This document shows positions 1-54,702 of a stretch of 64,000 nt of DNA, one piece after another. The notes beneath the pieces are model-generated. The model was not told the DNA's origin. It made no database searches and saw only the letters and a program-made list of their open reading frames with translations. Each line of letters starts with the position of its first letter. Position 1 is the first letter of the stretch. Origin of the DNA: Minisyncoccota bacterium (lineage in GTDB: Bacteria > Patescibacteriota > Minisyncoccia > Phycocordibacterales > UBA9973); assembly GCA_021734995.1 (NCBI GenBank), contig JAIPHX010000004.1, positions 18,115 through 82,114 on the forward strand. Direction: 5' to 3'. A program made the translations under genes and the position numbers.

Positions 1-733
1 ATATGATATTTTTTGCAGTAACAAGTCTTTTTTGACCTTGTCGTACTTCACTATTAAAATCTTTATCTATTGTATATAAACTTGGAAATTTTCCATTAGG
101 TAATGTAAAAGGATTCGCTGGATCGTAAATATAAGTTTTATCACCATCCTCTAATAGGATAAAGCTATGCGCCTCTGATTCTAGATTTTCTCCATCCTTA
201 TTCCAACACACTTCACCACTGAAATATCGTGATTGGATACTTTCATTCTGCAAATAAACCTGTGCTAATGCTGATATTTCTGCACATTCTGCACTGTTTA
301 ATCTAAATACATCACTTATTTTAATATCTTTTTCTTCGTATATTTTTTGACGAGAGTTTGCTCCTTGTGGATTATAAGGAAACTGTTCGTCATAGCTCCT
401 TGAAAAAGCAATGAGTTTTGCAAAAATTTCTGGGTTAATGTTTACCCCTTGTGCAACTAATTGTTTCTCAATTTTAATAAGATTATACCCTTCTGCAAGC
501 TTGCGAGTTTTAACAAAAAAATCTTTTAAGTTTTCAAAATCTGCAATTGCTGTCACGTTTACTTTTGCAGAAAACATACTTTCTCCTCCTACTGGGATAA
601 TATCATTTTCTGCTATTTCGCTAATTTCAAAACAATGATCAAAAATCATCTCAATATTTTGGTTTGAAGATGATTCTATTTTGGGCTTATTTACTTTAGA
701 TATACCTGATTTAAATTCTCCCATAGTGCTCAT
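1..733 (-). CDS. transglutaminase-like cysteine peptidase domain protein (N-terminal part; runs off window start)
   Basis: Minus-strand ORF starts at ATG 733 (MSTMGEFKSG...) and continues past position 1. Contains a Cys...His...Asp arrangement typical of transglutaminase-like cores (SAECAEISALAQVY ... EAHSFILLEDG ... YIYDPAN). Not in the ORF track because it is truncated by the window edge. Confidence 0.4.
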   Translation of the reverse strand, partial: MSTMGEFKSGISKVNKPKIESSSNQNIEMIFDHCFEISEIAENDIIPVGGESMFSAKVNVTAIADFENLKDFFVKTRKLAEGYNLIKIEKQLVAQGVNINPEIFAKLIAFSRSYDEQFPYNPQGANSRQKIYEEKDIKISDVFRLNSAECAEISALAQVYLQNESIQSRYFSGEVCWNKDGENLESEAHSFILLEDGDKTYIYDPANPFTLPNGKFPSLYTIDKDFNSEVRQGQKRLVTAKNII

Positions 734-771
734 TTTAGCATAAAATATTAATACCAGGTATGGGTCGATTA

Positions 772-1143
772 TTATGTCAGATTTTTTATGTATGACTGAA
801 AATCATGAAAGCTCTTGAATATTTGATTATCCTTTTGGTTCTTGTAGCGTATTATTGAAACAGCTTCTGGAATATTAATAATCTCTAATTCATTTAAAAA
901 TTTTACGAGAAATTCTTTTGAAATATCTTCTAAAATGAAGCCAACAATTGATGGATTCGGATACGCACTTAATACTATTCCTTTACTTCCCTTTTCTAAA
1001 AAATATTTAATTTGAAATCTCCATAACTTATCAATCTTTTCAATATCAATAGTTGAATCAAATATAATTTCGAAAAACTTATTTTCGTAATCGAGATCTA
1101 TTTCTGGGTCAAATGACCAATTGTCTTCGCGATAGGTTGTCAT
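772..1143 (-). CDS. hypothetical protein
   Basis: 123-aa ORF with no recognisable motifs; adjacent to the serine recombinase. Confidence 0.35.
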   Translation of the reverse strand: MTTYREDNWSFDPEIDLDYENKFFEIIFDSTIDIEKIDKLWRFQIKYFLEKGSKGIVLSAYPNPSIVGFILEDISKEFLVKFLNELEIINIPEAVSIIRYKNQKDNQIFKSFHDFQSYIKNLT

Positions 1144-1331
1144 AAAAAAATTATACCATACCGGAAAGCGGAAAGCTTTACTTCACGATGGTAAAACTTG
1201 CCAAATTGGAAACTTGCGGAGATCCTCGTATTAGAACCTTTCAGTAATAAGGCCTGTAAGGCTTTGGGGATATCTTTCATATTATCATAACAACGCTCCT
1301 CGTGCGAACTAAAAAGTGACAAAAGTGACAC
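1140..1331 (-). CDS. hypothetical small protein
   Basis: 63-aa ORF overlapping the previous ORF by 4 nt; weak support. Confidence 0.2.
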   Translation of the reverse strand: MSLLSLFSSHEERCYDNMKDIPKALQALLLKGSNTRISASFQFGKFYHREVKLSAFRYGIIFL

Positions 1332-1445
1332 TACTTGGACATATAAAGTTACATGAACATGTCACTATTTTAGACACGATTATGCGACGAATTTTTAGTC
1401 CTGCATAGACTTAGCAAAACTATTGTTCTCTGACACCATTGGTAT

Positions 1446-2768
1446 ATGGAAACATATACAACAGCTAGGATTAATAAGGAAATCTTTGCACCAGTACAAA
1501 AGATAAGGTATGTACTGTATGCTCGTAAATCTACCGAATCAGAAGAACGACAAGTTCTTTCAATAGATAGCCAAATAAAAGAAATGCTTGAACTAGCAGA
1601 AAGAGAAAACTTAGAAATTGTAGAAATCAGGCGAGAATCTCATTCAGCTAAAGAATCAGGACAACGACCTGTGTATAAGGAAATATTAGAAGACATACGA
1701 CGAGGTAGATTCAACGGAATACTAACTTGGGCACCAGATAGGCTTTCAAGAAACGCAGGTGACTTAGGGAGTATCGTAGATTTAATGGACCAAAAGTTGT
1801 TATTAGAAATTCGTACCTACGGACAACATTTTAAGAACTCTCCAAATGAAAAGTTTCTATTAATGATTCTCTGTTCTCAAGCAAAACTTGAGAATGATAA
1901 CAAAAGTGTAAATGTTAAACGAGGATTAAGAACAAGAGTAGAGATGGGACTATGGCCTGCTCCTGCACCAACAGGATACCTTAAAGAGAAAAGGATGGAT
2001 AGGAAATGCGAGACATTAATTGACAGAGATAGAGCACCTACAATCAAGAAAATGTTTGAGAAAGTAGCCTATGAGCATTGGAGTGGAAGAAAGGTATATA
2101 ACTGGCTTCGATTTGATTTAAACTTCAGGACAGCTTATGGAAAGAAGCATCTTAGCCTAGGTAATATATACAAAATACTAGGAAATCATTTCTACTATGG
2201 AATCTTTGAATATCCAAGAAAAAGTGGCAATTGGTATACTGGTAAACATGAGTCACTTATTACCAAAGAACTATATGACCAGGTTCAAGTGCAAATACGA
2301 AGCCAAGTCCTTCGTGTAGAAAACAAGGAATTTGCTTTCACTAAAATGATGACTTGTGGATTATGTGGTTCTAGTATTACGGCTGATGAAAAGTTTAAAA
2401 AACAGAAAAATGGTAATGTTCACAGATATGTATATTATGGATGTACGAAGTCTCAAAAAGCTGATTGCAAATGTGGCTACACAGAAGAAAAGGATATTCT
2501 CAAACAATTTGAAGAGTTAATTGAAAAGATTAATATTAATGAAATTCAAATTAAAGAAAAAATTAAAGCTGATGTTGAAAAATTCACCAATTTACAAAAT
2601 TTCTTCTTGGGAATTAAAGAAAAACCTAAAATATCAAATATTGATATCCGAGGATATGCTAGATATGTACTAAAAGAAGGGAGTGATATTGAGAAAAGAG
2701 AATTGTTGGGGTGCCTGAGGGGAAAGATTGTTTTGAGTGATAAAAAGATATCTATTTTAATTTTATAA
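1446..2768 (+). CDS. large serine recombinase (resolvase/invertase catalytic domain + recombinase domain + zinc ribbon)
   Basis: N-terminal YVLYARKSTESEERQVLSIDSQ matches the serine-recombinase catalytic motif (nucleophilic Ser in the ARKST context). 440 aa with a C-terminal Cys cluster CGLCGSS...YYGCTKSQKADCKCG, as in large serine recombinases. Confidence 0.85.
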   Translation: METYTTARINKEIFAPVQKIRYVLYARKSTESEERQVLSIDSQIKEMLELAERENLEIVEIRRESHSAKESGQRPVYKEILEDIRRGRFNGILTWAPDRLSRNAGDLGSIVDLMDQKLLLEIRTYGQHFKNSPNEKFLLMILCSQAKLENDNKSVNVKRGLRTRVEMGLWPAPAPTGYLKEKRMDRKCETLIDRDRAPTIKKMFEKVAYEHWSGRKVYNWLRFDLNFRTAYGKKHLSLGNIYKILGNHFYYGIFEYPRKSGNWYTGKHESLITKELYDQVQVQIRSQVLRVENKEFAFTKMMTCGLCGSSITADEKFKKQKNGNVHRYVYYGCTKSQKADCKCGYTEEKDILKQFEELIEKININEIQIKEKIKADVEKFTNLQNFFLGIKEKPKISNIDIRGYARYVLKEGSDIEKRELLGCLRGKIVLSDKKISILIL

Positions 2769-2802
2769 TAGTTTGGTATCTGTTTATAAATAAGAATTCA
2801 AA

Positions 2803-3702
2803 TTATTTTCTTTCTTTTATAGAGGTAATTTTATTTCCATTATGCATACTTGAAATTTTTCCATCAGCACCGTATCTATAATCTACTGTATTTAAACCAA
2901 TTGCGGGTATATTAGTAATATTTCCACCTTCACTTGGAATTAAAGCACCTAATCCTTTATTTTCAGGCTTCATTGTTCGTTCTTGAAAATTTATAAGTTC
3001 ATTAAAATCAAATGATTCTTTTAATTTAAAGGCGTCATCTTTTCTTACTCTTAAAAAAATAAAAGGTCCATCAATCTGAGTATTATTTTTTACCAATTGA
3101 TAAGTTCTTTCGTCAATTTTCTTATACACTCCAATATCTATTGATTGAGCAATTGTTTTTCCAGTTTTTGAGTCTGTTGCACTAAAATCATCGAGCCATC
3201 CTGAACCTTTCTTTGAATCATAAAATACTATTACATCAGAAGGATCTCTTTCTTTCTTCTCTCCCTTGTCATCACCCAAATAATCTGGGTTGTCTAAAAT
3301 ATTTTTAGTTCTTTGAACTTGTCCATTTTCTAAAACCTTGTAAACAGAACCTCTTTCAGTCTCGAATGATTCAAATTTTAAAATGTTATTTAATTCTTTT
3401 TCTGGAGTTTTATTTTGTATTTCATAAACAGAAGTCAATGTTTGTACTACATATTTTCCGTTTTCTACTTTTATACTCTTTATGTTACTTGTATTTCCAC
3501 CATTATCAAACTCAATAGGAAAACCAATCCTAACATTATTTTTCAATTTTCCTTGTAGTATATATCCAACTTCTAAATCTGAATTACCACTACTTGATTG
3601 TTTTAATAGAGACAATTCTTCACCAGTTTTTAATTCAAGTTTCTGGATAATATTTTCACTCTCAATTTTTTCATTATTTTGTGGGGGTATATCAAAAGCC
3701 AT
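2803..3702 (-). CDS. hypothetical protein (possible cargo of the recombinase island)
   Basis: 299-aa ORF with no recognisable domain; sits between the recombinase and tRNA-Trp. Confidence 0.45.
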   Translation of the reverse strand: MAFDIPPQNNEKIESENIIQKLELKTGEELSLLKQSSSGNSDLEVGYILQGKLKNNVRIGFPIEFDNGGNTSNIKSIKVENGKYVVQTLTSVYEIQNKTPEKELNNILKFESFETERGSVYKVLENGQVQRTKNILDNPDYLGDDKGEKKERDPSDVIVFYDSKKGSGWLDDFSATDSKTGKTIAQSIDIGVYKKIDERTYQLVKNNTQIDGPFIFLRVRKDDAFKLKESFDFNELINFQERTMKPENKGLGALIPSEGGNITNIPAIGLNTVDYRYGADGKISSMHNGNKITSIKERK

Positions 3703-3793
3703 ATATTTATAATATCAAATTTTTTACTATTTTAATAGTATTATTTTTAGATATTAAATATTTGCAGACAACACATCTCGTGCTAGCTGTCAA

Positions 3794-3867
3794 TGGCGGG
3801 CGATGAGAGAATCGAACTCCCGATAACGGTTTTGGAGACCGTAGTTATGCCACTTAACTAATCGCCC
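3794..3867 (-). tRNA. tRNA-Trp (anticodon CCA)
   Basis: Reverse complement GGGCGATTAGTTAAGTGGCATAACTACGGTCTCCAAAACCGTTATCGGGAGTTCGATTCTCTCATCGCCCGCCA folds as a clean cloverleaf: acceptor GGGCGAT/ATCGCCC, D stem GTTA/TAAC, anticodon stem ACGGT/ACCGT with loop CTCCAAA (anticodon CCA), T arm GGGAG-TTCGATT-CTCTC, encoded CCA. Confidence 0.85.
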
Positions 3868-3986
3868 ATACAACACATTTATTATTCAACACAACATCAG
3901 TACATTATTTATCTACCTACAACACAATACGCATTTTTTTCTCCCCAAAAAAACAAAAACAATCCTGGATTTCTGCAAAACCCAAT

Positions 3987-4064
3987 AGGGCTCAAACAGG
4001 AATCGAACCTGCTCAGCCGGCATATATTTTCAAGCCGACCATTCTTCCGTTAAACTATAAGCCC
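3987..4064 (-). tRNA. tRNA-like element with an atypical anticodon arm (possible tRNA-Phe(GAA)-derived pseudogene or non-canonical tRNA)
   Basis: Reverse complement GGGCTTATAGTTTAACGGAAGAATGGTCGGCTTGAAAATATATGCCGGCTGAGCAGGTTCGATTCCTGTTTGAGCCC has a perfect 7-bp acceptor (GGGCTTA/TGAGCCC), U8-A9 and a canonical T arm (GCAGG-TTCGATT-CCTGT). The anticodon stem TCGGC/GCCGG encloses a 12-nt loop (TTGAAAATATAT) instead of 7, the D stem pairs poorly, there is one extra nt before the acceptor 3' strand, and no CCA is encoded. Confidence 0.4.
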
Positions 4065-4169
4065 GTGCTCCCCAGCTGGTAACTGAGGAGTCCTCAGACA
4101 GCTTTTTACTAGTAATCAAGCTTCTGATAGTAAAAAAGAACAACACGACGAACTTTCGCCGTATCGTTA

Positions 4170-4198
4170 ATTATAGCATATTTATATTTTTCAAACAA
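4170..4198 (-). promoter_or_regulatory. candidate sigma70-type promoter (TTGTTT-17-TATAAT) reading toward the tRNA-like element
   Basis: On the minus strand: TTGTTTgaaaaatataaatatgcTATAATtaacg, about 100 nt upstream of the tRNA-like 5' end and directly after the rpmG terminator. Confidence 0.35.
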
Positions 4199-4240
4199 AA
4201 AAATACCCTATAAAGCTTAATTTATAAGGGTATTTTTTAT
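4199..4240 (-). terminator. intrinsic terminator hairpin downstream of rpmG (palindromic, usable on either strand)
   Basis: AAATACCCTATAAAgcttaaTTTATAAGGGTATTT inverted repeat flanked by an A-run and a T-run, immediately after the rpmG stop codon. Confidence 0.5.
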
Positions 4241-4404
4241 TATTTCTTAACTTCTTTATGCTTTAAACTTTTTTTGCACCATTTGCAAAACTTTTTTAGT
4301 TCAAGCTTAGTGGTAACAGTTTTTTTGTTTTTACTTGACCAATAGTTAATCCTCTTGCAAGTACCGCAAGCAAGCTTTATTAGTCTATCTTGTGATTTAG
4401 CCAT
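4240..4404 (-). CDS. rpmG: 50S ribosomal protein L33 (Cys4 zinc-ribbon type)
   Basis: Hand translation of the minus strand gives MAKSQDRLIKLACGTCKRINYWSSKNKKTVTTKLELKKFCKWCKKSLKHKEVKK (54 aa). This has the L33 signature (KLELKKF, paired CxxC). Absent from the ORF track because it is under 60 aa. Confidence 0.8.
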   Translation of the reverse strand: MAKSQDRLIKLACGTCKRINYWSSKNKKTVTTKLELKKFCKWCKKSLKHKEVKK

Positions 4405-6761: not shown

Positions 6762-7004
6762 ATGTTTAATATTTTAAACTATAAAATCAAAATATATAAA
6801 GATAAAAATGGAATTTACGCAGGATACGTACCCTCTCTAAAAAGTTGTTATACTCAAGCAAAAAATCTAAAGGAGCTAAAATCAAGACTCCAAGAAGTTG
6901 TCATGTTGTCTTTAGAAACCAAAAACGAGGTCGGAAGAACCAGTGAGTTCATGGGTAAGAATGTCAAATCCTATGCCAAAACTGGTGCCAATTTCACCTC
7001 ATAA
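6762..7004 (+). CDS. hicB: HicB-family antitoxin-like protein
   Basis: 80 aa with the HicB/UPF0150 pattern (YKIKIYKDKNGIYAGYVPSLKSCYTQAKNLKELKSRLQEVV); directly followed by and overlapping a HicA-like gene. Confidence 0.55.
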   Translation: MFNILNYKIKIYKDKNGIYAGYVPSLKSCYTQAKNLKELKSRLQEVVMLSLETKNEVGRTSEFMGKNVKSYAKTGANFTS

Positions 7005-7209
7005 ATTAATAAAAATACTTAAAAAGCTAGGCTTCCGTGAAGAAAGAATAAGAGGTAGTCACCATTTTTTTGTAAATCCAATTTCAAAAAAAACAACAAC
7101 GATACCCATACACAATAATGAATCTTTAGGCATAGGTATCTTAAAATTAATCTTAAAAGATATTAATTTATCAACAGAAGAGTATGAAAAGCTAAGGAAG
7201 ACAATCTAG
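6973..7209 (+). CDS. hicA: HicA-family mRNA interferase toxin-like protein
   Basis: KLIKILKKLGFREERIRGSHHFFVNP matches the HicA/YcfA signature (…L.K.GF…GSHH.F). Likely start is ATG 6973 (MPKLVP…); the track ORF begins at 6943. Overlaps the hicB 3' end. Confidence 0.6.
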   Translation: MPKLVPISPHKLIKILKKLGFREERIRGSHHFFVNPISKKTTTIPIHNNESLGIGILKLILKDINLSTEEYEKLRKTI

Positions 7210-9560: not shown

Positions 9561-12101
9561 ATGAACAAAAATAAAACAAAAATACGATTATCCAAAAATA
9601 TCATACCCCTTAGATACAATATTGAAGTAAAACCAGATTTAGAAAATTTCACTTTTAGTGGTAAAGAGGTTATTTTTGTAAATATTTTAGAAAACACAGA
9701 TACTATTACTCTTCATACCAAAGATATTCAAATAGATGTAGCAAATGTATCTGTTTCATCAAAAAAAGACGATCAGAAAATATTTGCTAAGAAAATTACT
9801 TACAATCAAAAACAAGAAACAGCTACATTCTTTTTTTCAAAAAAAATACCTGCAGGAAAAATTTTCCTTACTTTGATATTCAAAGGAATCCTTAATGATA
9901 AAATGCGAGGATTCTATAGAAGCAAATATCACATAGAAGGAGCCACAGAACACATGGCTACTACTCAATTTGAAGCGACAGATGCAAGACGAGCTTTTCC
10001 TTGTTTTGATGAACCTGCCCAAAAATCAATTTTTGAAGTTTCTTTGATCGTACCAAAAGGACACACAGCTATCTCCAATACATTACCAGTATCAGTACTA
10101 GAGCACGAAGCAGGCTATGAAATAGTCAGATTTTCCCCTACTCCCAAAATGTCTACTTATCTTTTAGCTTTCATTGTAGGAAAATTTGAATTTTTAGAAA
10201 AAAAATCAAAAAATGGAGTATTGGTCAGAGTATACACTACTCCCGGTAAGACTTACCAAGCAAAATTTGCTCTTGAATGCACCGTCAAAACTCTAGATTT
10301 TTATGAAGAATATTTTGACATACCATATCCATTACCAACTCTTAATATGATAGCTATTCCTGATTTTTCTTCTCTTGCTATGGAAAACTGGGGAGCTATT
10401 ACTTTTCGAGAAATTGGTCTTTTAGTAGATGAAAAAAATACTTCTATCCAATCAAAAGAAAAAGTTGCTGAGGTTATCGCTCATGAAATCGCTCACCAGT
10501 GGTTTGGCAATCTTGTCACAATGGAATGGTGGACACACTTATGGCTCAATGAAGGTTTTGCTTCATATATTCCATATCTTGCTATTCATAAAATATTTCC
10601 AAAATGGAATATTTGGGAAAGATTTGTTACAGATACTTCTGGTATTGCGTTACGTTTAGATTCTCTAAAAAATACTCATCCAATAGAGATAGAAGTACAT
10701 CATCCCGACGAGATTGGAGAAATATTTGACGCAGTCTCATATTCTAAAGGAGCTTCTGTGATTGCTATGCTTGCTGATTATTTAGGTAAAGAACATTTTA
10801 GAAATGGTCTCAGATATTATCTAAAAAAGCATAGTTACAAAAATACTGAAACAATTCACCTATGGCAAGCCTTTGAAAAAATATCCAAAAAGCCCGTAGC
10901 TAAAGTAATGCAAAATTGGACAAGTAAAGGTGGATACCCTGTAATTGAAGCACGCATTGAAGGAGAAAATATTATTTTAAAACAAGACAGATTTTTCTCC
11001 AGCCCTATTTCAAAACAAAAAAACAAAGAGAAAGTTCTCTGGCAAATACCTGTATCTTTTGGAGACAACAAGCAAAAACAAAAATTATCCCTTTCAGACA
11101 AGGAGACGAGTTTCAAATATACCAAGGAGTGGGTCAAGATAAATCTAGGGGAAAATGGATTTTTTAGAGTTGTATATTCAAATGAATTATTGCAAAAATT
11201 AAAAAACCCTATCATCAAAAAGGAACTTCCCTCTTATGATCGTCTAGGTATCATTCGAGATTTGTTTGCTTCAGCTGAAGCAGGGATAATCCCCACTTCT
11301 TTAGTGTTAGATTTTCTTGATGCCTACAAAAATGAAGATAGCTATATAGTATGGGTAGAGATAGGGAGAGGCTTGTCTCAACTCGAACAAATTTTTGCTA
11401 AGACTAAAGAAATATCTAAAATAGAAAAGATTACTATAGGTCTTTTCTATCCTTTAATTAAAAAATTAGGTTGGGATCCGAAATCAAAAGAACCCAACAC
11501 TGATTCTTTATTACGCTCTATGGTATTACATCGTCTAGCTCGTTCTAAAGAGCCCAATACTCTAAAAAAAGCAAAGAGTTTATGGAAAGCTATACTTAAA
11601 GGAGAACAAATACATCCAGATATCAGGAGTGCTATATATAGCGCAGTAGCTGTTGAAGGAGATTTGTCAGATTTTAACAAAATGATTGAAATGTATAAAA
11701 AAGAAAGTATGCACGAGGAAAAAAATCGCCTTGGTAGCTCTTTGGGAGATTTCAATCAAAAAGATATTTTACAAAAAGTATGCCAATTTGCTCTTTCAGA
11801 AGATGTCAGGACGCAAGATTCTCCAAGTATTATTGGAAGTGTTGGAATGAACCCAGTAGGTAGAGACATATGGTGGAATTTCACTCAAAAAAATTGGGAT
11901 CTTTTGATCAATAGATATGGTGAAGGATCACACCAATTGAGTAGGATTATAAAATCATCATCTGGAAGCGCAGAAGAAAAGCATCTTAGCTCATTAAAAA
12001 AGTTTTTTGAAACACATAAAGCTCCTGGAGCAGAAAGAGCTGTGGAACAAGTTTTTGAAAAAATAGAAAGCAATATCGCTTGGAAAAAAAGAGGGTTATA
12101 G
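9561..12101 (+). CDS. pepN: aminopeptidase N (M1 family)
   Basis: HEIAHQWFGNLVTMEWW (HExxH) plus LWLNEGFASY (the second Glu ligand) and a GAMEN-like AMENWG motif; 846 aa. Confidence 0.85.
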   Translation: MNKNKTKIRLSKNIIPLRYNIEVKPDLENFTFSGKEVIFVNILENTDTITLHTKDIQIDVANVSVSSKKDDQKIFAKKITYNQKQETATFFFSKKIPAGKIFLTLIFKGILNDKMRGFYRSKYHIEGATEHMATTQFEATDARRAFPCFDEPAQKSIFEVSLIVPKGHTAISNTLPVSVLEHEAGYEIVRFSPTPKMSTYLLAFIVGKFEFLEKKSKNGVLVRVYTTPGKTYQAKFALECTVKTLDFYEEYFDIPYPLPTLNMIAIPDFSSLAMENWGAITFREIGLLVDEKNTSIQSKEKVAEVIAHEIAHQWFGNLVTMEWWTHLWLNEGFASYIPYLAIHKIFPKWNIWERFVTDTSGIALRLDSLKNTHPIEIEVHHPDEIGEIFDAVSYSKGASVIAMLADYLGKEHFRNGLRYYLKKHSYKNTETIHLWQAFEKISKKPVAKVMQNWTSKGGYPVIEARIEGENIILKQDRFFSSPISKQKNKEKVLWQIPVSFGDNKQKQKLSLSDKETSFKYTKEWVKINLGENGFFRVVYSNELLQKLKNPIIKKELPSYDRLGIIRDLFASAEAGIIPTSLVLDFLDAYKNEDSYIVWVEIGRGLSQLEQIFAKTKEISKIEKITIGLFYPLIKKLGWDPKSKEPNTDSLLRSMVLHRLARSKEPNTLKKAKSLWKAILKGEQIHPDIRSAIYSAVAVEGDLSDFNKMIEMYKKESMHEEKNRLGSSLGDFNQKDILQKVCQFALSEDVRTQDSPSIIGSVGMNPVGRDIWWNFTQKNWDLLINRYGEGSHQLSRIIKSSSGSAEEKHLSSLKKFFETHKAPGAERAVEQVFEKIESNIAWKKRGL

Positions 12102-12568: not shown

Positions 12569-14641
12569 TTGAACAAAAAAACTAAATTATATGCTAAGAA
12601 ATTAGAAACTCTAGGTGAAAAAGTAGATCAATTAATAAAAGAATTAGAAAAAAATGCTAAGGAAGTAATTGAAAAATTAGACAAAAGGAAACTCAGGGAA
12701 TCATTAAAACATGCTCTCCAAATTAAATTTGATCCTAAAATAAATGAACTCTATGGTGCATTTGATACTCTTTTAACTGCTCAAGACCCTATTTTAGCAG
12801 AAAATTATAAAATTTCAGATATTTATAAAAAGGCAAAAAAAATTACTATTGAGAATAGAAAGCAAAACACGATATTAAATTACACAAATGCTTTAGTAAA
12901 AAAACTTAATCTAGAAATACATCAAGAAGAAATATTCCAGATATTGAAAAATAATCTATCTAAAGATTTTGATGATCAGTTAAAAAAATTCTTTAAAGAA
13001 AAACAGATTAAATATAACGAAGATATAAATTATAATAAAAATTATTTACACTCTTTATACCACAAGGAACCAATAAATCTAGGTATTTTTAAAATAGACG
13101 GTAAAAATATGTCTTTTTTTTCTTTGACATCACAAGAACATCTACAAGAAGAATCAAAAAAAATGGGACATTGCATAGGGGAAAGTGAATTCTATTTAAA
13201 AAAAATAATGAGTGGGCAAATAATGGCCATTTCTTTAAGAGATGAAGAAGGGCCACATTATACAATAGAATATGATATTAAAACAAAAACTATCATACAA
13301 TTTAAGGGTGGAAACGACACTCCTGTCAATTCGTTACCAAACAATAGAGCAATAGTCACAGACACACTTAATGCTTTATATAAAATGGGTTTTGATATTA
13401 AAAAGATGACTGAAAATTTTAGTTATTCTTTGTATAAAGATATAAAAGAAAATAAATTTTATACTTTAGACGAAGAAAATATCACCAATCTTATTTTGAA
13501 CGAAAATAAAAAATTTATTAAAGGTATTGTAGATCTGAACCAAAATACTACAGAAGAACAGTTAGAGTATCTTTGTTCTTCTGGATTAGATCTGAATATA
13601 GACAACTTACCAAAAGAAAAATATTATTTACTACAAAAAATAGAAGGGAGTATTGTTTATACTAAAATAGACCATCTACTTTTGCCAAATCTTGCTTCTG
13701 TGGGAGGTTACATTAATGCAGAAAAAGCTCAAAGTTTTAAAGCACCAAATCTTGCTTCTGTGGGAGGTGACATTAATGCAAGAAATACTCAAAGTTTTGA
13801 AGCACCAAATCTTGCTTCTGTGGGAGGTTACCTTTTTGCAGGAAGTACTCAAAGTTTTAAAGCACCAAATCTTGCTTCTGTGGGAGGTGACCTTTTTGCA
13901 AGAAAAGCTCAAAGTTTTGAAGCACCAAATCTTGCTTCTGTGGGAGGTGACCTTTTTGCAGAAAAAGCTCAAAGTTTTGAAGCACCAAATCTTGCTTCTG
14001 TGGGAGGTAGCCTTTATGCAAGAAATACTCAAAGTTTTGAAGCACCGAATCTTGCTTCTGTGGGAGGTGACCTTTTTGCAGAAAAAGCTCAAAGTTTTAA
14101 GGCACCAAATCTTGCTTCTGTGGGAGGTAGCCTTTATGCAGGAAGTACTCAAAGTTTTGAAGCACCAAATCTTGCTTCTGTGGGAGGTAGCCTTTATGCA
14201 GGAAGTACTCAAAGTTTTGAAGCACCGAATCTTGCTTCTGTGGGAGGTGACCTTTTTGCAGAAAAAGCTCAAAGTTTTGAAGCACCGAATCTTGCTTCTG
14301 TGGGAGGTAGCCTTTATGCAAGAAATACTCAAAGTTTTGAAGCACCGAATCTTGCTTCTGTGGGAGGTAGCCTTTTTGCAGGAAAAGCTCAAAGTTTTGA
14401 AGCACCGAATCTTGCTTCTGTGGGAGGTGACCTTTATGCAGGAAAAGCTCAAAGTTTTGAGGCACCAAATCTTACAAAAATAAAAATTTTAATCGTAAAT
14501 TTATCTATATTAAATAATTTTAATATTCCTGATAATTGTTCTATTGAGCACATTAACAACCAAGGAGAAGAAATTTATTATCCTTCTATCAAAGAAATTA
14601 AACAAATAATAGCTCAAAATAATTCAAAAACTAAAAAATAA
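12569..14641 (+). CDS. repeat protein: N-terminal domain (~370 aa) followed by 13 tandem 20-aa LRR-like repeats (PNLASVGGxLxAxxxQSFxA)
   Basis: 690-aa ORF. The C-terminal 260 aa are 13 nearly identical repeats with the aliphatic/Asn spacing of BspA/LRR_5-type repeats (F.APNL.SVGG.L.A…QSF). Confidence 0.7.
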   Translation: MNKKTKLYAKKLETLGEKVDQLIKELEKNAKEVIEKLDKRKLRESLKHALQIKFDPKINELYGAFDTLLTAQDPILAENYKISDIYKKAKKITIENRKQNTILNYTNALVKKLNLEIHQEEIFQILKNNLSKDFDDQLKKFFKEKQIKYNEDINYNKNYLHSLYHKEPINLGIFKIDGKNMSFFSLTSQEHLQEESKKMGHCIGESEFYLKKIMSGQIMAISLRDEEGPHYTIEYDIKTKTIIQFKGGNDTPVNSLPNNRAIVTDTLNALYKMGFDIKKMTENFSYSLYKDIKENKFYTLDEENITNLILNENKKFIKGIVDLNQNTTEEQLEYLCSSGLDLNIDNLPKEKYYLLQKIEGSIVYTKIDHLLLPNLASVGGYINAEKAQSFKAPNLASVGGDINARNTQSFEAPNLASVGGYLFAGSTQSFKAPNLASVGGDLFARKAQSFEAPNLASVGGDLFAEKAQSFEAPNLASVGGSLYARNTQSFEAPNLASVGGDLFAEKAQSFKAPNLASVGGSLYAGSTQSFEAPNLASVGGSLYAGSTQSFEAPNLASVGGDLFAEKAQSFEAPNLASVGGSLYARNTQSFEAPNLASVGGSLFAGKAQSFEAPNLASVGGDLYAGKAQSFEAPNLTKIKILIVNLSILNNFNIPDNCSIEHINNQGEEIYYPSIKEIKQIIAQNNSKTKK
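13685..14464 (+). repeat. 13 x 60-bp near-perfect tandem direct repeats (coding)
   Basis: The unit ccaaatcttgcttctgtgggaggt…caaagttttgaagca recurs at exact 60-nt spacing (13685, 13745, … 14405). Variation is confined to about six codon positions. Confidence 0.9.
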
Positions 14642-27681: not shown

Positions 27682-30402
27682 TTGTTTTTATGTCTTTTTG
27701 CATATCATGTTAGAATGTTTCTAATGAACAAGATGTACAAAAATTCAAATGATTTAAGAATGCCCCCTCAGAGTATTGCTTCTGAGCAAGCAGTCCTTGG
27801 ATCAATAATGCTTCGCAAAGATGCGCTACTTGATATTGAAGATGTAGTTAATGCAGATTCTTTCTATGCTCCAAAACACAAAATAATATTCCAATCAATG
27901 CTTGATCTTTCTTTAAAAAATGAACCAATTGATCTTTTGTCTGTTGCAAACAAATTAGCTGAACAAAAAAACATAGAGAGTGTCGGGGGAAACCAATACC
28001 TTGCGGAGTTGGCTAATAGTGTTCCATCTTCTGCCAACATTAGACACTATGCCGAAATCGTTCAAAAAAAATATATTTTAAGATCTTTAATAGAAGCATC
28101 CAACCATATCTCTGAAATTGCTTTTGAGGAAAATGATAGCAACCTAGATGAAGTATTGGACGAAGCAGAGAAAAAAATTTTTGGCATAGTGAACTCTCCT
28201 AAAAATCAAAAATATGTCAATCTAAAAGATGCTCTGCCTGAAGCTTTTGAAAGAATAGAAAAACTTAGTGAACACAAGGGAGGTCTTAGAGGAATACCTA
28301 CTGGATTTAAAGATTTAGACAATACTCTTTCTGGATTACAAAATTCAGATTTAATCATTCTAGCAGCTCGTCCTTCTGTTGGTAAAACTACCCTTGCCCT
28401 AGACATGGCTCGTATGTCTGCTATTGGACACAAAAAAGCAGTGGGTATATTTTCTTTGGAAATGTCTGCTCAACAACTCATAGACAGAATGCTCTCTGCT
28501 GAATCCAAAGTAGATGCTTGGAAAATTCGCACCGGTAAAGGTCTACATATAGAGCATGATTTTGGTAGAATCCGAGATGCTATGCAAAGACTTTCTGAAG
28601 CAAAAATATTCATAGATGATCAAGCAGGTAATTCTATCACCAAAATGAAAGCTGTAGCTAGACGTTGGAAAGCAGAAAAAGGATTAGATTTTATAATAGT
28701 GGACTATTTACAACTTATGACTACTTCTAAAAACTACGACTCTATGGTCAATCAAGTCACTGAAATTTCTCGTTCTTTGAAAGCTTTAGCCAAAGAATTA
28801 GACGTACCTGTACTTGCTCTTTCTCAGCTAAACAGAGCAGTAGAATCTCGTGGAGGGAAACCTAGACTTTCAGACTTGAGAGATTCGGGCTGTGTCACAG
28901 GTGATACTTTGATTCAAAGAGCCGATACAGGAGAAAGAATTCCGATTAAAGAATTGGTGGGACAACAAAATATACCTGTTATCTCTCTAAGTGGAGAATA
29001 TGAGTTACGACCAATGCTTGCTTCAAAATTTTTCTCTAATGGAAAAAAAGAAATTTTTGAATTAAAAATGCGTAGCGGTAAAACAATCAAAGCATCTGCA
29101 AACCATAAATTTTATACAATGGACGGGTGGCAAAGACTTGATGCACTAGACGAAAGTGACAGGATTGCGACCCCTCGTTTTATCCAAGCGACTTCTCCAA
29201 TATCCAACCTTTGTAAAGAAGAATTAATCTTACTTGCTCATCTGCTTGGAGATGGATGTGTACTACCTAGACAACCAATTCATTACACAAGCGCAGATGA
29301 AAAAAACATAAAAGCAGTAGAAGATGCTTCTGAAAAATTATTTGGCATCAAAGCCAGAAGAATTCGTCAAAAAAATTGGTGGCATACATATTTACCTTCT
29401 CCTTATCGTCTAACCAAAAACAAACATCACCCCATAACAGATTGGTACACAGAACTAGGAATTCAAGCAGTGCGTTCTTATGAGAAAAAAATTCCTAAAG
29501 CAGTCTTCGCTTCAGACAGTATGTCTATCCAGCTTTTCTTGCATCATCTTTGGGCTACTGATGGCAATATTTCTAGAAAAATTTTGGCAGGTAGGAAAAC
29601 ATCTGCTTCTATATACTATGCTACTTCTAGTAAAGAATTAGCAAAGGGTGTACAACATTTACTTTTACGCCTAGGAATTTGGAGCAATATCAGAGAAGTG
29701 ACACAAGGCAAATATCGTCCCATGTTTAATGTCTATGTGCAAAGTACTCCAATGCAAAAAAAGTTTTTAGATTTAGTAGGATCTTATGGTTCCAGAGGAA
29801 AAATTGTTTCCCAATTAAAAAAAGCATTAGAAGCTATTGCTCCTATCCCAAATACAGACACAATTCCAAAAGAAGTTTGGCAACTTTTTGTTGCTCCTGA
29901 AAAAGAAAAAGCAAACATGAGCTGGAGAGATGTTTCAGAAAATTTAAATATCTCTTACAATGGTAGTGCTTTAGTCACTAGAGGAGTCTCCAGAGAACGA
30001 TTAGCTAAAGTTGCTACCGTGTTGCAAAGCAAAAGCCTAGTTCACTTAGCTGAATCAGATATATATTGGGATGAAATCACATCTATCACTCCTCTTGGCA
30101 AAGAAGAAGTCTTTGATGCTACTGTTCCAGGAGCCCATAATTTTGTAGCTGAAGATATTATTATTCATAACAGTATAGAACAAGATGCTGATGTGGTGAT
30201 GTTTATCCACCGTGAAGATAAAGGTAAAGATGAATCTGAAAAGACTAATATCGCAGAAATTCTAATAGAAAAACACCGAAATGGTCCTACAGGAAAAGTA
30301 GAATTGTATTTTGATGAAAAAACTACTACTTTCCTAAACTTAGATAAAAGTAGTATCAATGAATTTTCAGCAACACAAATAAGTAATTTAGATGAATTTT
30401 AA
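27682..30402 (+). CDS. dnaB: replicative DNA helicase DnaB, interrupted by an intein
   Basis: The N-terminal DnaB domain, Walker A (ARPSVGKTT), Walker B (IIVDYLQLM) and the C-terminal FIHRED…EILIEKHRNGPTG are separated by a 427-aa insert. The true start is probably an internal Met (MNKMYK… at ~27724). Confidence 0.9.
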   Translation: MFLCLFAYHVRMFLMNKMYKNSNDLRMPPQSIASEQAVLGSIMLRKDALLDIEDVVNADSFYAPKHKIIFQSMLDLSLKNEPIDLLSVANKLAEQKNIESVGGNQYLAELANSVPSSANIRHYAEIVQKKYILRSLIEASNHISEIAFEENDSNLDEVLDEAEKKIFGIVNSPKNQKYVNLKDALPEAFERIEKLSEHKGGLRGIPTGFKDLDNTLSGLQNSDLIILAARPSVGKTTLALDMARMSAIGHKKAVGIFSLEMSAQQLIDRMLSAESKVDAWKIRTGKGLHIEHDFGRIRDAMQRLSEAKIFIDDQAGNSITKMKAVARRWKAEKGLDFIIVDYLQLMTTSKNYDSMVNQVTEISRSLKALAKELDVPVLALSQLNRAVESRGGKPRLSDLRDSGCVTGDTLIQRADTGERIPIKELVGQQNIPVISLSGEYELRPMLASKFFSNGKKEIFELKMRSGKTIKASANHKFYTMDGWQRLDALDESDRIATPRFIQATSPISNLCKEELILLAHLLGDGCVLPRQPIHYTSADEKNIKAVEDASEKLFGIKARRIRQKNWWHTYLPSPYRLTKNKHHPITDWYTELGIQAVRSYEKKIPKAVFASDSMSIQLFLHHLWATDGNISRKILAGRKTSASIYYATSSKELAKGVQHLLLRLGIWSNIREVTQGKYRPMFNVYVQSTPMQKKFLDLVGSYGSRGKIVSQLKKALEAIAPIPNTDTIPKEVWQLFVAPEKEKANMSWRDVSENLNISYNGSALVTRGVSRERLAKVATVLQSKSLVHLAESDIYWDEITSITPLGKEEVFDATVPGAHNFVAEDIIIHNSIEQDADVVMFIHREDKGKDESEKTNIAEILIEKHRNGPTGKVELYFDEKTTTFLNLDKSSINEFSATQISNLDEF
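28891..30171 (+). mobile_element. intein with LAGLIDADG homing-endonuclease domain inside dnaB
   Basis: Begins with Cys (RDSG|CVTGDTL), contains LAGLIDADG-like LLAHLLGDGC and a second block, and ends …IIHN|S (His-Asn followed by an extein Ser). It is in-frame, 1281 nt, located after Walker B at the common DnaB insertion site. Confidence 0.8.
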
Positions 30403-37763: not shown

Positions 37764-40061
37764 TTATCCTAAAATTTTTCGCAAGACATCTTCAGGTACT
37801 TCTTTTGTTTTATTTTTCAGATCTTCTTGTTTCTTTTTACTGTCATATTCTTCGTTTTCGTCTTCTTGTTTCTTTTGATCATCATTTACCTGTTTTTCAT
37901 CTTCTTCTGTATTTTGATTATCAATTATCTCATCTTTTTTATTTTCTTGTTTAACTTCAGAATCTTCTAGAGGTCTTTCCCTTTCTGGAACTTTTGATAT
38001 TTCAGGCATTTCTATTTCGCGCACTATTCCAGAAAATACTGGAGTTTGTTCTTTTACATCTTCTTCTTTTTTTATCTCATTGACTTCTTTTGTTACAATT
38101 TTTTCAGTTATTTCTTTTGTTTCATCTATATCACTTATTTCCTCAAACTTTCCAATAAAATCTTTAAGCTTATTCATTTCTTCTAATGAAGCAGATTTAT
38201 CATTTTTAGGTGGTTTATTTTCTGTTTTTGATTTCAATATGTCTAAAGAAGCAGGAGGTTCTACCGGCTCACTTACCACTTCTTTTATTTCTTCTTTAGC
38301 TTTTATTTCTTCTGTTTTATTATTTAAAGTCTTATTTAAAATATCTTTTAAAGCACTTGTATCTCTTTCTTTTTCATTTTTATTTTTATTTTTTGAAAAA
38401 ACATTTTTGATTCCAGAAAATATTTTTGGTCTACCTGAACTTTTGTTATTATTACTTTCCCTCGAATCCTTAGAAGGTTCTTTGCTTTGTTCATTACTCT
38501 CTTCTTGTGCAAACTCTATTCCTAGATCCATTAATGGTTTATAAAACTTAGTAGGCTTGTAGTTTGACACAGACTCACCTTTCACTGGCTTCATTTCTCC
38601 TGCTTTTATTTTAGTAATACAATCTTTACAATACACAGGTCTTCCTTTTTCTGGTTTAAAAGGAACTTTTGTCGCATTTCCACAAGAAGAACACTCTACA
38701 TCAAATTTTTCAAAATTATTATTACCAGGATTTCCGTTTTCATCCAGAATAGACATTCCACTCCAATTATTTATTTCTTTTTCTACCTCTTCCTTTGTTT
38801 TACAATATAATTCACGAGACATTTTTATCACTTCCGTTTCTATTTCCTGATTACCAGATTTTACCAATTGAGGCATTGTTTTTGCAGAAAATGGACGCGA
38901 TGTAACTCCGTCAATCATAAGCTTCATATATACTTTATAATTCGGTAAATTAACAATATCCTCTGGAGTAAATTCTGGTTCAAATTCTTTTTCCAAAAAA
39001 TCAGCATCATCTGCTCCTACTCTAAACACAATCATTGTTCCAATGTTTCCAAAGATAGCATCACGAACAGAAGAGCTTTCTTTGGTAACAAGCTGAGCAG
39101 TGTATTGGTGAGCAACTGTAAGATTTAGGCGGTATTTTCTAGCTTCAGAAAGAATACCTGCAAAAGCATCTGTAACGAAATTTTGAAATTCGTCCACGTA
39201 AAGATAGAAATCTTTACGTTCATCTTCTGGGATACGTACTCTTTCCATCGCAGCAAGCTGAATTTTAGTAATAATCATACCTCCAAGAAGAGCTGAGTTG
39301 TCTTCTCCAATTCTTCCTTTTGAAACGTTTACCAAAAATATTTTTCCTTCATTCATCATATCAAAAATATTGATAGTACTTTTAGACTGACCCACAATAT
39401 TTCTAATAATAGAAGTAGATAAAAATTGCCCTACTTTGTTTTGAATAGGAGCGATAGCTTCGTTTCTAAATTTATCTTGCCATTCTTCGTATTCATGTAT
39501 CCAAAAAGCTTTAATGACAGGATCTTTCAAATTGGTGATTATTTTTTGTCTATAATCTTTGTCTACCAACATTCTAGGGATACCAAGAAGAGTAGTTCCA
39601 GGAGTATCTAGTAAAGCCAAAATAGCATTATTTAAAATATATTCCATTCTGGCACTCCAAGCATTTGCCCATATTTTTGTAAATATTCCCATCAAACCAG
39701 AAGCTACTAAATGCTTATACTTAGGATCTATTAATTCCAGCACATTAAAACCTATATGATATTCTGTATCAGCAGGATTAAAATATATTACATCTTTTAA
39801 TCTATGAGGTGGTATAGCAGAAAGGACACCTTCCACATTCTCTCCATGAGGATCCACAAGACATACACCATCTCCATTCTGGATGTTTTGAATAATCATA
39901 TTGAACATTAGAGCAGATTTACCAGTACCAGATTTTCCAAGAATATATACATGCTGACGTCTGTCTCTACGCTTTATACCAAAGAGTTTATTTTGGTCAC
40001 GAAAACTGGCTAAGCCAAGATATGTAAGGTCTCTATTACGTGGTAAGTCTGATAAATCCAT
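37764..40061 (-). CDS. FtsK/HerA-superfamily P-loop ATPase with C-terminal CxxC…CxxC zinc ribbon and ~330-aa K/E-rich low-complexity tail
   Basis: Walker A ILGKSGTGKS, CLVDPHGE, Walker B LYVDEFQ. Then CSSCGNATKVPFKPEKGRPVYCKDC, then a long lysine/glutamate-rich tail (…KEEIKEVVSEPVEPP…EDENEEYDSKKKQEDLKNK…). Confidence 0.55.
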   Translation of the reverse strand: MDLSDLPRNRDLTYLGLASFRDQNKLFGIKRRDRRQHVYILGKSGTGKSALMFNMIIQNIQNGDGVCLVDPHGENVEGVLSAIPPHRLKDVIYFNPADTEYHIGFNVLELIDPKYKHLVASGLMGIFTKIWANAWSARMEYILNNAILALLDTPGTTLLGIPRMLVDKDYRQKIITNLKDPVIKAFWIHEYEEWQDKFRNEAIAPIQNKVGQFLSTSIIRNIVGQSKSTINIFDMMNEGKIFLVNVSKGRIGEDNSALLGGMIITKIQLAAMERVRIPEDERKDFYLYVDEFQNFVTDAFAGILSEARKYRLNLTVAHQYTAQLVTKESSSVRDAIFGNIGTMIVFRVGADDADFLEKEFEPEFTPEDIVNLPNYKVYMKLMIDGVTSRPFSAKTMPQLVKSGNQEIETEVIKMSRELYCKTKEEVEKEINNWSGMSILDENGNPGNNNFEKFDVECSSCGNATKVPFKPEKGRPVYCKDCITKIKAGEMKPVKGESVSNYKPTKFYKPLMDLGIEFAQEESNEQSKEPSKDSRESNNNKSSGRPKIFSGIKNVFSKNKNKNEKERDTSALKDILNKTLNNKTEEIKAKEEIKEVVSEPVEPPASLDILKSKTENKPPKNDKSASLEEMNKLKDFIGKFEEISDIDETKEITEKIVTKEVNEIKKEEDVKEQTPVFSGIVREIEMPEISKVPERERPLEDSEVKQENKKDEIIDNQNTEEDEKQVNDDQKKQEDENEEYDSKKKQEDLKNKTKEVPEDVLRKILG

Positions 40062-42693: not shown

Positions 42694-43379
42694 AGATACA
42701 TAGATTTATCGGGGATTACAATTTGAATAAAGATTTCATTACTATTACTGATCTATCTCAAGTAAAGCAAATTAAAAATGTTTTAAAGTTAAATATTAAT
42801 GAACACATTTTTTTATCGGATGGGATGGGAAAAGAAATTGAAGCAGAAATTCAAAATATTCAAAAAGAACAAATTATGGTAAAAAAAGTAGTGGAAATTA
42901 TTACAGAAAAAGAAAATAAAAAAGTGAACTTGTATCTTGCTATCTTAAAGAAAGAAAACTTTGAATTAGCCGTCCAAAAAGCAGTAGAATGTGGCGTGTC
43001 AGAAATCACACCAATTTTAACAAAAAGAACAATAAAGACAGGTATCAAGAAAGATAGGCTTGAAAAAATAATCAAAGAGGCATGTGAACAATCTGGAAGA
43101 AATATTATTCCAAAAATAAATGAAATTACAACTTTTGAAAATGCATTACAAGAAGGACAAAAAAACGATCGTAAGGTGATTTTTCATTTTTCCAAAGAAG
43201 AATACTCAAATATCCCTGATATCAAAAGCATCGCTATATTTATAGGGCCAGAAGGTGGTTTTACTGATACTGAAATATCATTTGCAAGAGAACAAAAATA
43301 TGAAATTTGCTCTTTAGGTGACCATACACTACGAGCTGAGACTGCTTGTATTGTAGGGAGTTATCTTGCTTGCCACTAA
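42690..43379 (+). CDS. rsmE: 16S rRNA (uracil1498-N3)-methyltransferase RsmE
   Basis: PUA-like N-terminus and SPOUT C-terminus with IFIGPEGGFT; 229 aa; HRF at the N-terminus. Confidence 0.7.
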   Translation: MKIHRFIGDYNLNKDFITITDLSQVKQIKNVLKLNINEHIFLSDGMGKEIEAEIQNIQKEQIMVKKVVEIITEKENKKVNLYLAILKKENFELAVQKAVECGVSEITPILTKRTIKTGIKKDRLEKIIKEACEQSGRNIIPKINEITTFENALQEGQKNDRKVIFHFSKEEYSNIPDIKSIAIFIGPEGGFTDTEISFAREQKYEICSLGDHTLRAETACIVGSYLACH

Positions 43380-45115: not shown

Positions 45116-45149
45116 ATATTAAAAGTATATATAATAAAGGGTAATTAGT

Positions 45150-46892: not shown

Positions 46893-46913
46893 GTTATATT
46901 AAAACAATCCCAG

Positions 46914-47831
46914 CTAGAAATCAATCAGCAATATATTCTTTCCTTTTGAGTGACCTTTTTTTTGATATTTTAAAGCTTTTTTAAAGTGTTTAATATTAAA
47001 ATACTTATCCACAACAACCTTTATTGTTCCTTTTCCAATAAGTTTAACGATCTGCCCCAAGTCTTTTGAATCTGAATGAAACAAAAAATGCTTAGCTAAA
47101 ATATCATATCCTTCCAAATCTTCACTAGTTGGTTTTCCATTTATTGATAAATATTTTCCACCTTTCTTTAATACCTTAAAAAGAGTACTCTTCATTGAAA
47201 CACTATCAAGAACACAATCAAGATCTTTTATCTTATTAAAACTTGAAGTGTTGGTATAGTCTAAAATCTCATCAGCCCCAATATTATATAAAAACTTATG
47301 GTTTTTCTTTGAAGCAGAAGTATACACATACGCCCCTTTCCATTTAGCAAACTGTATTGCAAACAAACCCACTCCTCCAGCCCCAGCAGTTATAAATATC
47401 TTTTGTCCTTTTTTTAAATTAAGTTCTTTAAATAGAGATTGCCAAGCTGTCAGACTAGCCAAAGGAATTGATGCTGATTTTAAAAGAGATATATTTAATG
47501 GTTTTTTATATATATACATCTCTTTCGTCACTATGTATTCAGCACAAGCCCCCTGTTTCAACCATTCAAGAGATCCAATTACTTTATCTCCTTTTTTATA
47601 TTTTTTTATTTTTTTACCAACCTTAACAGCAACACCAGAAAAATCACTACCTAAAATATATGGCTTTTTAAATATATTATATTCTATTCCTTTCCAATCT
47701 ACAGGGTTTAATCCAACAGCTTTTACTTTAATTAAAATTTCATTATTTAAAATATCAGGGATAGGAATTCTTTTTATTCTTATATAGTTTCCTGATATAT
47801 TTTTATCTACAAAAATAGCTTTCATAATCAA
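46914..47831 (-). CDS. zinc-type/MDR-superfamily NAD(P)H-dependent oxidoreductase (quinone oxidoreductase-like)
   Basis: GroES-like N-terminus; Rossmann motif ITAGAGGVGLFAIQFAKWKGAYVY. Confidence 0.7.
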   Translation of the reverse strand: MIMKAIFVDKNISGNYIRIKRIPIPDILNNEILIKVKAVGLNPVDWKGIEYNIFKKPYILGSDFSGVAVKVGKKIKKYKKGDKVIGSLEWLKQGACAEYIVTKEMYIYKKPLNISLLKSASIPLASLTAWQSLFKELNLKKGQKIFITAGAGGVGLFAIQFAKWKGAYVYTSASKKNHKFLYNIGADEILDYTNTSSFNKIKDLDCVLDSVSMKSTLFKVLKKGGKYLSINGKPTSEDLEGYDILAKHFLFHSDSKDLGQIVKLIGKGTIKVVVDKYFNIKHFKKALKYQKKGHSKGKNILLIDF

Positions 47832-47833
47832 TT

Positions 47834-48556: not shown

Positions 48557-48577
48557 TTTAAAATATATACTTTTTAA

Positions 48578-50305: not shown

Positions 50306-50337
50306 AAATAAAGTATATATAATAAAGGATAATTAAT

Positions 50338-52925: not shown

Positions 52926-52945
52926 AAATATATATAATTTTTTAA

Positions 52946-54688: not shown

Positions 54689-54702
54689 TTTATAAATATT
54701 TT

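Follow-up and report, generated by a model that had tools for sequence, protein, structure and literature searches.

A short serine-recombinase element probably integrated next to tRNA-Trp in a genome of Patescibacteria

Introduction

Why does a gene encoding a large serine recombinase (LSR) lie next to tRNA-Trp in a genome of the Patescibacteria, and where does the element that it might mobilise begin and end? The locus is found in the first kilobases of a stretch of 64 kb (hereafter the window; contig JAIPHX010000004.1 of assembly GCA_021734995.1, G+C content of about 31%), whose host is of the Paceibacterota/Nomurabacteria type and has a best Ddl identity of 64% among the GTDB species representatives. 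All coordinates are window positions unless a locus is named, and L-numbers designate Logan contigs and fetched loci. An initial annotation, made from the letters of the window, had described on the minus strand the succession of rpmG, a tRNA-like element, tRNA-Trp, and an open reading frame (ORF) of 299 amino acids (aa), followed on the plus strand by a 440-aa LSR, and we could confirm this order with Pfam, ARAGORN, Rfam, and PHROG. The annotation took the region for an integrative element or prophage remnant next to the tRNA gene, extending from the rpmG side to the left edge and beyond it. The idea of an integrative element at the tRNA is retained here on other evidence, namely its ends, a motif abutting the tRNA, and the comparison of empty and occupied sites, and its extent is revised from 1-4240 and beyond to 1215-3793. 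These 2.6 kb are probably an integrative element placed directly 3' of the host tRNA-Trp, and a deletion derivative of a family spread across the Patescibacteria.

Results

Both ends of the element lie within the window

The extent of the element is revealed by its similarity to elements of other genomes. In blastn searches, homology covers 1215-2758 and then 3768-3822, where it runs into the tRNA gene. The partners are L171 (LSR identity of 93%, targeted tRNA-Ser), L089/L090 (85%, targeted tRNA-Trp), and L173. Among these loci and the window, the flanks left of 1215 are unrelated, as are the genes between the stop codon of the LSR and the motif that precedes the tRNA, and homology resumes at 3768 with L171 and L090 although the target of L171 is a tRNA-Ser. 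Homology begins at 1215, and its other limit, 3793, adjoins the CCA end of tRNA-Trp. The window therefore contains the two boundaries, and the earlier statement that the boundary is not visible was mistaken.

The left end is marked by a module of about 105 nucleotides (nt) (Table 1). Its first 8 nt or so resemble the acceptor end of a tRNA in reverse complement, and are followed by a box resembling TCTCGTGYTAG, a T-loop-like TTAGAACC, and a hairpin in which two stem pairs stay paired despite changes on both sides. An nhmmer profile of the module finds it in no loci but those with a recombinase, invariably at the element's far end: between the host TsaD and the cargo (a CBASS system) in L085 (position 2353), adjoining the start codon of MscL in L086 (6307), and also in L096 (1745), L089, L171, L173, and L102. 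The region upstream of the LSR, module included, has no match to an Rfam family. An element body confined to the upstream side of the LSR was considered and rejected, since cargo is found on both sides and the left-end module is the far boundary.

The right end is marked by a motif that shares the TCTCGTGYTAG box with the left-end module and abuts the tRNA. Its last 20 nt, at 3774-3793, CATCTCGTGCTAGCTGTCAA, are the reverse complement of the motif of the window's subfamily, which reads CCA-[TTGACAG or AGTCGTG]-NTAG-CACGAGATG on the tRNA strand. Motifs of this kind, of one of three types, follow 33 of the 38 tRNAs proximal to recombinases, including those for Gln, Ser, Arg, Glu, Trp, Asn, Phe, and Asp. 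They follow none of the 23 other tRNAs in the recombinase loci and a single one of 24 in Ddl loci devoid of recombinases (1/47 in total). The absence after those 23 tRNAs led us to reject the explanation of the motif as a trailer that tRNAs of the host lineage have in general. The type of motif tracks the recombinase subfamily, not the identity of the tRNA. For the window's type, the tRNAs bearing the motif nearly all have a genome-encoded CCA and their neighbouring tRNAs do not; the window's own tRNA-Trp encodes its CCA, which is unencoded in most relatives.

At the left junction, read on the tRNA strand, the sequence is ...GGATCTCCGCA|AGTTTCC, and at the empty sites of relatives it is ...CGCCCGC|AGTGAA. 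The window reads ...ATCGCCCGC|CATTGACAG on the tRNA side and ...GGATCTCCGC|AAGTTTCC on the far side. In L171 and L102 the right-end motif is joined directly to the left-end module, as would be expected of tandem elements or of a junction resembling a phage-type attachment site (attP). No attP-type junction was found in IMG/VR by an exact-pattern scan, nor in the fetched loci with a looser pattern, which was of poor design.

Table 1. Features at and around the element, with window coordinates.
Feature	Positions	Strand	Basis or remark
123-aa ORF	772-1143	-	Outside the element
Flank just outside the left end	1144-1214	.	Upstream region of the 123-aa ORF; putative former 3' flank of tRNA-Trp (attB' side)
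63-aa ORF	1140-1331	-	Spans the element boundary at 1215
Left-end module, about 105 nt, TGCGGAGATCCTCGTATTAGAACC...	1215-1319	+	nhmmer profile, recombinase loci only
Non-coding region upstream of the LSR	1320-1445	+	Presumed promoter and 5' untranslated region
LSR, 440 aa	1446-2768	+	Pfam, PHROG, catalytic motifs
Cargo gene, 299 aa	2803-3702	-	Between LSR stop codon and right-end motif
Right-end motif, ACAACACATCTCGTGCTAGCTGTCAA	3768-3793	+	Abuts the TGG encoding the CCA end of tRNA-Trp
tRNA-Trp(CCA), host target gene	3794-3867	-	ARAGORN; Rfam 63.4 bits; 3' end toward the element
tRNA-like element	3988-4064	-	Rfam 27.3 bits; ARAGORN only with introns allowed
rpmG	4240-4404	-	Pfam Ribosomal_L33, 8e-16

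The insertion site is empty in relatives

The island had originally been suspected because secE-nusG was expected after tRNA-Trp. Yet, secE, nusG, rplK, rplA, and tuf are absent from the entire 64 kb (tblastn with Escherichia coli and Bacillus subtilis queries), and NusG, RplK, RplA, and SecE have no tblastn match within 10 kb of the locus in the relatives L005-L030, where EF-Tu was likewise not found beside tRNA-Trp. The order M24-Ddl-(Alr)-rpmG-tRNA-Trp, in which the alanine racemase Alr is not always present, is kept in 10 related genomes of Paceibacterota/Nomurabacteria. There, the 3' side of tRNA-Trp carries either a convergent block consisting of MiaA, a protein with helix-turn-helix and MurA parts, tRNA-Leu(CAA), and ParB, or variable genes. 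The block follows tRNA-Trp directly in L008, where the gap to MiaA is 3 nt, and in L006; one to several unrelated genes intervene in L007, L010, L012, and L013; and L009 has a wholly different arrangement. As these relatives carry the MiaA block or variable genes instead, secE-nusG is not to be expected at this place: the annotation had itself named the lack of linkage in all related genomes as the observation that would refute it, in none of the 10 are these genes found there, and the argument from secE-nusG is thereby refuted. Judging from these gene orders, what lies 3' of tRNA-Trp varies within the clade. In L005, the segment comprising rpmG, a 218-aa ORF, and tRNA-Trp (L005 12360-13347) is flipped relative to Ddl and MiaA.

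The comparison with related genomes, which the annotation had proposed, supports an insertion. In the 10 relatives the rpmG-tRNA-Trp region lacks the recombinase, the end motif, and the left-end module, and L008 and L006 represent the empty site. Occupied sites are also available: L089 has ParB, tRNA-Leu, and MiaA to the left of the element, L090 (which encodes the same LSR protein) shows the element joined to tRNA-Trp at the right, and L096 contains a full-length element with MiaA 860 nt outside the left-end module. The Logan contig L002 terminates exactly at the junction between motif and tRNA, a weak hint of heterogeneity. From these sequence comparisons we infer that the window copy is mobile.

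A conserved recombinase at the 3' end of tRNA genes

The LSR gene is apparently intact. Its product has the Resolvase (PF00239, 5.9e-20), Recombinase (PF07508, 9e-11), and Zn_ribbon_recom (PF13408, 9e-8) domains, matches the PHROG integrase family phrog_95 (2e-57), and carries the motifs YARKS with S29, DRLSR at 98-102 (DRxxR), and CGLC at residue 304; the closest solved structure is that of the SPbeta integrase SprA/YokA (9dxh, 3.4e-15). It is the sole recombinase of the element, which has no tyrosine integrase. There are at least 8000 homologues, and the best 120 are each at least 80% identical to it, in genomes labelled Campbell-, Nomura-, Taylor-, and Pacebacteria. This is far more conserved than host genes: compare the best Ddl match given above or L086, where the LSR is 84% identical to that of the window and a PilM-like host protein only 43%. 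The gene neighbours of the LSR vary from genome to genome. Upstream, the final 70-90 nt or so before the start codon align with L085, L086, L091-L093, and others, and the entire non-coding region between the module and the LSR is 80-86% identical in L171, L089, and L173.

The recombinase has a clear orientation relative to tRNA genes. In 86 recombinase loci, with similar amounts of sequence upstream and downstream, 62 tRNAs are downstream of the LSR gene and 5 are upstream (binomial p = 4e-15), and 53 of the 62 are convergent with it, such that the 3' end of the tRNA points toward the LSR. In three independent loci, L171 (4979-5068), L108, and L191, the tRNA adjacent to the right end of the element is called as tRNA-Ser with the unusual anticodon ACT, with a normal tRNA-Ser(GCT) 100-200 nt away; the ACT gene may be a duplicated or altered copy of the target.

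Full-length relatives and their RNA

The full-length members of the family are about 7-19 kb long, with cargo such as copper resistance, CBASS, and ABC transporters. In 25-30 loci the LSR is preceded by genes for a ParB-type N6/N4 methyltransferase, a TerS-like protein of about 135 aa, and a TerL of about 510 aa (PHROG, 6.6e-79), to which L085 adds a CI-like S24 repressor. The element of L085 spans 18.65 kb, reaches to a tRNA-Ser, and shows no capsid or tail genes in its 18.6 kb; that of L086 spans 6.7 kb and has core genes on either side. IMG/VR contains 36 contigs with this recombinase, many of which end at a tRNA, and tandem copies of the LSR exist, with two on one contig.

Many of these loci encode the LOOT RNA (RF03000), which we identified in L085 at 9709-9837 on the minus strand (80 bits, for a gathering score of 46.4). 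An nhmmer profile of LOOT has 42 matches in the 86 recombinase loci and none in 80 Ddl loci, and in most matches the RNA lies 150-320 nt upstream of the LSR on the opposite strand. A repeat of the 5' strand of its long stem, 9-16 nt in length and with a sequence specific to each locus, lies 2-5 nt ahead of the ATG of the ORF that comes next on the strand of LOOT (e.g., L085 at about 9646-9700, L095, L100, L140, L144, and L152). The longest such repeat has a mean length of 8.7 nt, for 4.2 nt in shuffled sequences, and reaches at least 10 nt in 16 of 36 loci. This arrangement suggests that the repeat could provide an alternative pairing that hides or exposes the translation start, i.e. that LOOT could be a cis-regulatory leader. 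The searchable literature has no description of this recombinase family or of a function for LOOT.

The copy in the window is much smaller. No LOOT was found at 1100-1480 even at E <= 10, nor in the window by nhmmer, and the element has no PHROG match other than the integrase, lacking packaging, structural, and repressor genes. Because it kept only the ends, the LSR, and one cargo gene, and lacks the repressor, the ParB-methyltransferase, TerS, TerL, and LOOT, we regard it as a deletion derivative. Related elements have different genes at the position of its cargo gene. The 299-aa protein has 13 homologues, none annotated, one of which (93% identity) adjoins rpmG in another genome, on a contig that breaks off within the neighbouring ORF, at the place where one would look for the recombinase gene. 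Its AlphaFold2 model is mostly made of beta-strands (mean predicted local distance difference test of 82.6) and has no fold match in the PDB at E <= 0.001.

How far does the element reach, and how did it arrive?

If the element ended at 1215, what are the genes to its left? The Logan contig L001, identical to the window (0 mismatches over 12.8 kb), extends it by 1802 nt. The completed ORF at the edge, on the minus strand, has 263 aa, and the extension also contains a NUDIX gene and ORFs of 204 and 57 aa. The edge gene had been called transglutaminase-like, for which the case is weak: Transglut_core (PF01841) is matched below threshold (E = 0.19, 12.5 bits for a cut-off of 23), the spacing of Cys...His...Asp is visible, and 2 of 88 homologues have the papain-like toxin domain PF15645. 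The genes left of 1215 probably lie outside the element. The view of the initial annotation, one large island or prophage remnant starting at tRNA-Trp with its far boundary outside the window, would include the 123-aa ORF, the 263-aa gene, the NUDIX gene, and the 204-aa and 57-aa ORFs, and some observations favour it. These genes are not syntenic with relatives, which have MiaA, MurA, tRNA-Leu, and ParB there; the homologues of the 263-aa protein are patchy, mostly on contigs of 1-3 kb, and include the two with the toxin-type domain; and in each of two sequencing runs the Logan contig stops 1.8 kb left of the window, at one and the same perfect 22-nt palindrome, CACACTAAATATATTTAGTGTG (L001 1-22), which reflects either a fault of the assembly or a genuine hairpin or repeat boundary. 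Yet, 1215 is both where the left-end module starts and where homology across genomes ends, no end motif abuts the module as it would in a tandem array, the left ORFs have no PHROG or phage matches, the composition of the left region is not deviant (69th percentile), and no second recombinase is present. We thus find a large island improbable.

A second alternative concerns the way in which the present arrangement arose. Recombination between element copies at tRNA-Ser and tRNA-Trp could have produced a chimera whose left flank formerly lay beside tRNA-Ser, an event that would have rearranged the chromosome. The acceptor-like bases of the left end would fit this scenario, since they are Ser-like in the window (TGCGGAGA, with CGGAGA) and Trp-like in L096, L173, and L085 (GGCGGGCG or TGCGGGCG), and so would the absence of the MiaA block from the 3 kb beyond the element. 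However, in L089/L090 the left end is Ser-like, the target is tRNA-Trp, and MiaA is nevertheless kept at the left, and in L085 the end is Trp-like and the target a tRNA-Ser. Because these loci mix end type and target, the acceptor-like bases look borne by the element rather than derived from the host, and a chimeric origin seems quite unlikely. Finally, that the LSR is a vertically inherited, domesticated chromosomal gene with a host role such as inversion or resolution, outside any mobile element, is very hard to sustain: its extreme conservation across several candidate lineages, its host-like composition, and its nucleotide identity of 76-86% to relatives (so low that the divergence is old and not due to a recent sweep) could be so explained, but its neighbours differ in every genome examined, it is absent beside tRNA-Trp in 10 relatives, conserved ends enclose variable cargo, and it is linked to a terminase/repressor module, occurs in IMG/VR contigs, and forms tandem copies.

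The interpretation of 1215-3793 as an integrative element has to face a number of observations that weigh against it. First, the two that inspired the chimera count here too: the Ser-like left end accompanies a tRNA-Trp target, and no MiaA block is found in the 3 kb to the left, where one would be expected. Second, the search for direct or inverted repeats over the extended region, another check proposed initially, gave only AT-rich chance matches and no att-type repeat of tRNA-Trp. Third, some members of the family may cross over deeper in the tRNA: L099 has an 18-bp direct repeat of the 3' end of tRNA-Gln at the far end of its element, which would fit such a site. Fourth, neither an excised form nor an empty site in the same species was seen. 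Fifth, the proposed check on composition revealed no deviation in G+C or tetranucleotides, the element being at the 54th percentile for tetranucleotide distance. Sixth, no recombination directionality factor could be identified. Last, the motif patterns behind the count of 33 in 38 tRNAs were defined on the same loci in which they were later counted.

Other features of the window

The tRNA-like element between tRNA-Trp and rpmG is present, although it scores below the Rfam tRNA cut-off of 29 bits and has an anticodon loop of 12 nt instead of 7. The removal of 5 nt from this loop, the extra ones being on its 3' side, yields a tRNA-Phe(GAA). The element has no counterpart in any fetched locus and may be a pseudogene or an unusual tRNA. 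Of the two small hypothetical genes described initially, the 123-aa ORF is plausible and the 63-aa ORF, straddling the boundary, is probably spurious.

Further away, six near-tandem paralogous ORFs of 555-580 aa, with three shorter ORFs interspersed, occupy 43376-56370 on the minus strand; their mutual identity is 30-52%, and the four that were scanned have no match in Pfam. The DnaB helicase gene (27682-30402, plus strand) is split by an intein that includes an endonuclease domain of the LAGLIDADG type. A PcfJ-like protein (12569-14641, plus strand), encoded in the most deviant tetranucleotide stretch of the window, and a TraG/VirD4-type coupling protein (37764-40061, minus strand) may be traces of another mobile element. 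Overlapping small ORFs at 6762-7209 (plus strand) form a HicB-like/HicA toxin-antitoxin pair, with HicA_toxin from Pfam in the gene list.

Discussion

The arrangement of the ends suggests how the element might integrate. The attP site would consist of the right-end motif next to the tRNA-like module of the left end, with the predicted junction ...CTCGTGCTAGCTGTCAATG(G) joined to CGGAGATCCTCGTATTAGAACC..., and the bacterial site (attB) would consist of the 3' end of the tRNA gene plus its trailer, the LSR joining one to the other. The predicted empty attB of this host would be tRNA-Trp ...CATCGCCCGC joined to AAGTTTCCAATTTGGCAAG..., and the flank at 1144-1214 would be, as far as sequence comparison goes, its displaced part (attB'). 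The comparison of junctions points to a crossover on or beside the discriminator base and the first C of CCA, which would keep the tRNA intact and endow it with a CCA encoded in the genome. If the LSR recognised what the 3' ends of tRNAs have in common, the use of genes for Trp, Ser, Gln, Glu, Arg, Asn, and Asp would be explained. One may go further and propose a distinct mode of serine-integrase targeting, where attP carries a structured mimic of the tRNA 3' end, attB is the generic 3' end of nearly any tRNA gene, and LOOT acts as a cis-acting switch in the full-length members; this is a speculative extension that we regard as rather unlikely in its entirety. In this same reading, because the stem strand of LOOT is repeated before a start codon with locus-specific covariation, the RNA could control a gene of the element, such as a directionality or lysogeny factor.

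Our study has thus corrected the size and boundaries of an element and shown that the expectation of secE-nusG does not apply to this clade. It also concerns broader questions: 1) tyrosine integrases are the enzymes classically associated with integration at tRNA genes, and here a single conserved family of serine integrases uses many tRNA species across the Patescibacteria; 2) cargo such as copper resistance, CBASS, and transporters matters for tiny and streamlined genomes, which makes the family a candidate for a major route of gene exchange among bacteria in which few mobile elements are known; 3) through the association with this family, the orphan RNA LOOT acquires a genomic context and a regulatory model that can be put to the test; and 4) an integrase of 440 aa with a short, definable site at a universal sequence might be of interest to genome engineers.

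How does this family compare with known systems? Islands at tRNA genes with tyrosine integrases (P4-like) have been catalogued in Islander (PMC4383910). The similarities are the insertion at the 3' end of the tRNA, the integrase inside the element, the variable cargo, the tandem arrays, the sites left empty in relatives, and, in the relative L099, the repeat of the target's 3' end. The differences are the use of an LSR, the presence in the window copy of a module resembling a tRNA end at the far end in place of a target repeat, and the use of many tRNA species by one recombinase subfamily. The tycheposons of Prochlorococcus include 27 elements with a large serine recombinase among 937 (bioRxiv 10.1101/2020.12.28.424599). 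They are alike in being carriers of cargo, or satellite-like with a packaging gene, and in having a minority with this type of recombinase; they differ in their host phylum, in relying mostly on tyrosine recombinases, and in often having replication genes. We know of no report of a LOOT RNA or a left-end module in tycheposons. Phage-inducible chromosomal islands and other phage satellites recall the full-length relatives, exemplified by L085, which have a repressor, TerS, TerL, and an integrase and in which no capsid or tail genes were seen; unlike them, the window copy has only the integrase out of this set, and no helper phage is known.

The closest parallel for the enzyme itself is with the large serine integrases of phages and of integrative and conjugative elements, such as SprA/YokA of SPbeta and TP901-1, of which phiC31 and Bxb1 are further examples. 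Characterised serine integrases mostly target protein-coding genes. The LSR of the window shares with them the order of resolvase, recombinase, and zinc ribbon domains, the catalytic serine, and DRxxR, and its larger relatives are linked to phage packaging genes; it differs from them in being short (440 aa), in being unusually conserved across a bacterial group, and in having the 3' ends of tRNA genes as targets.

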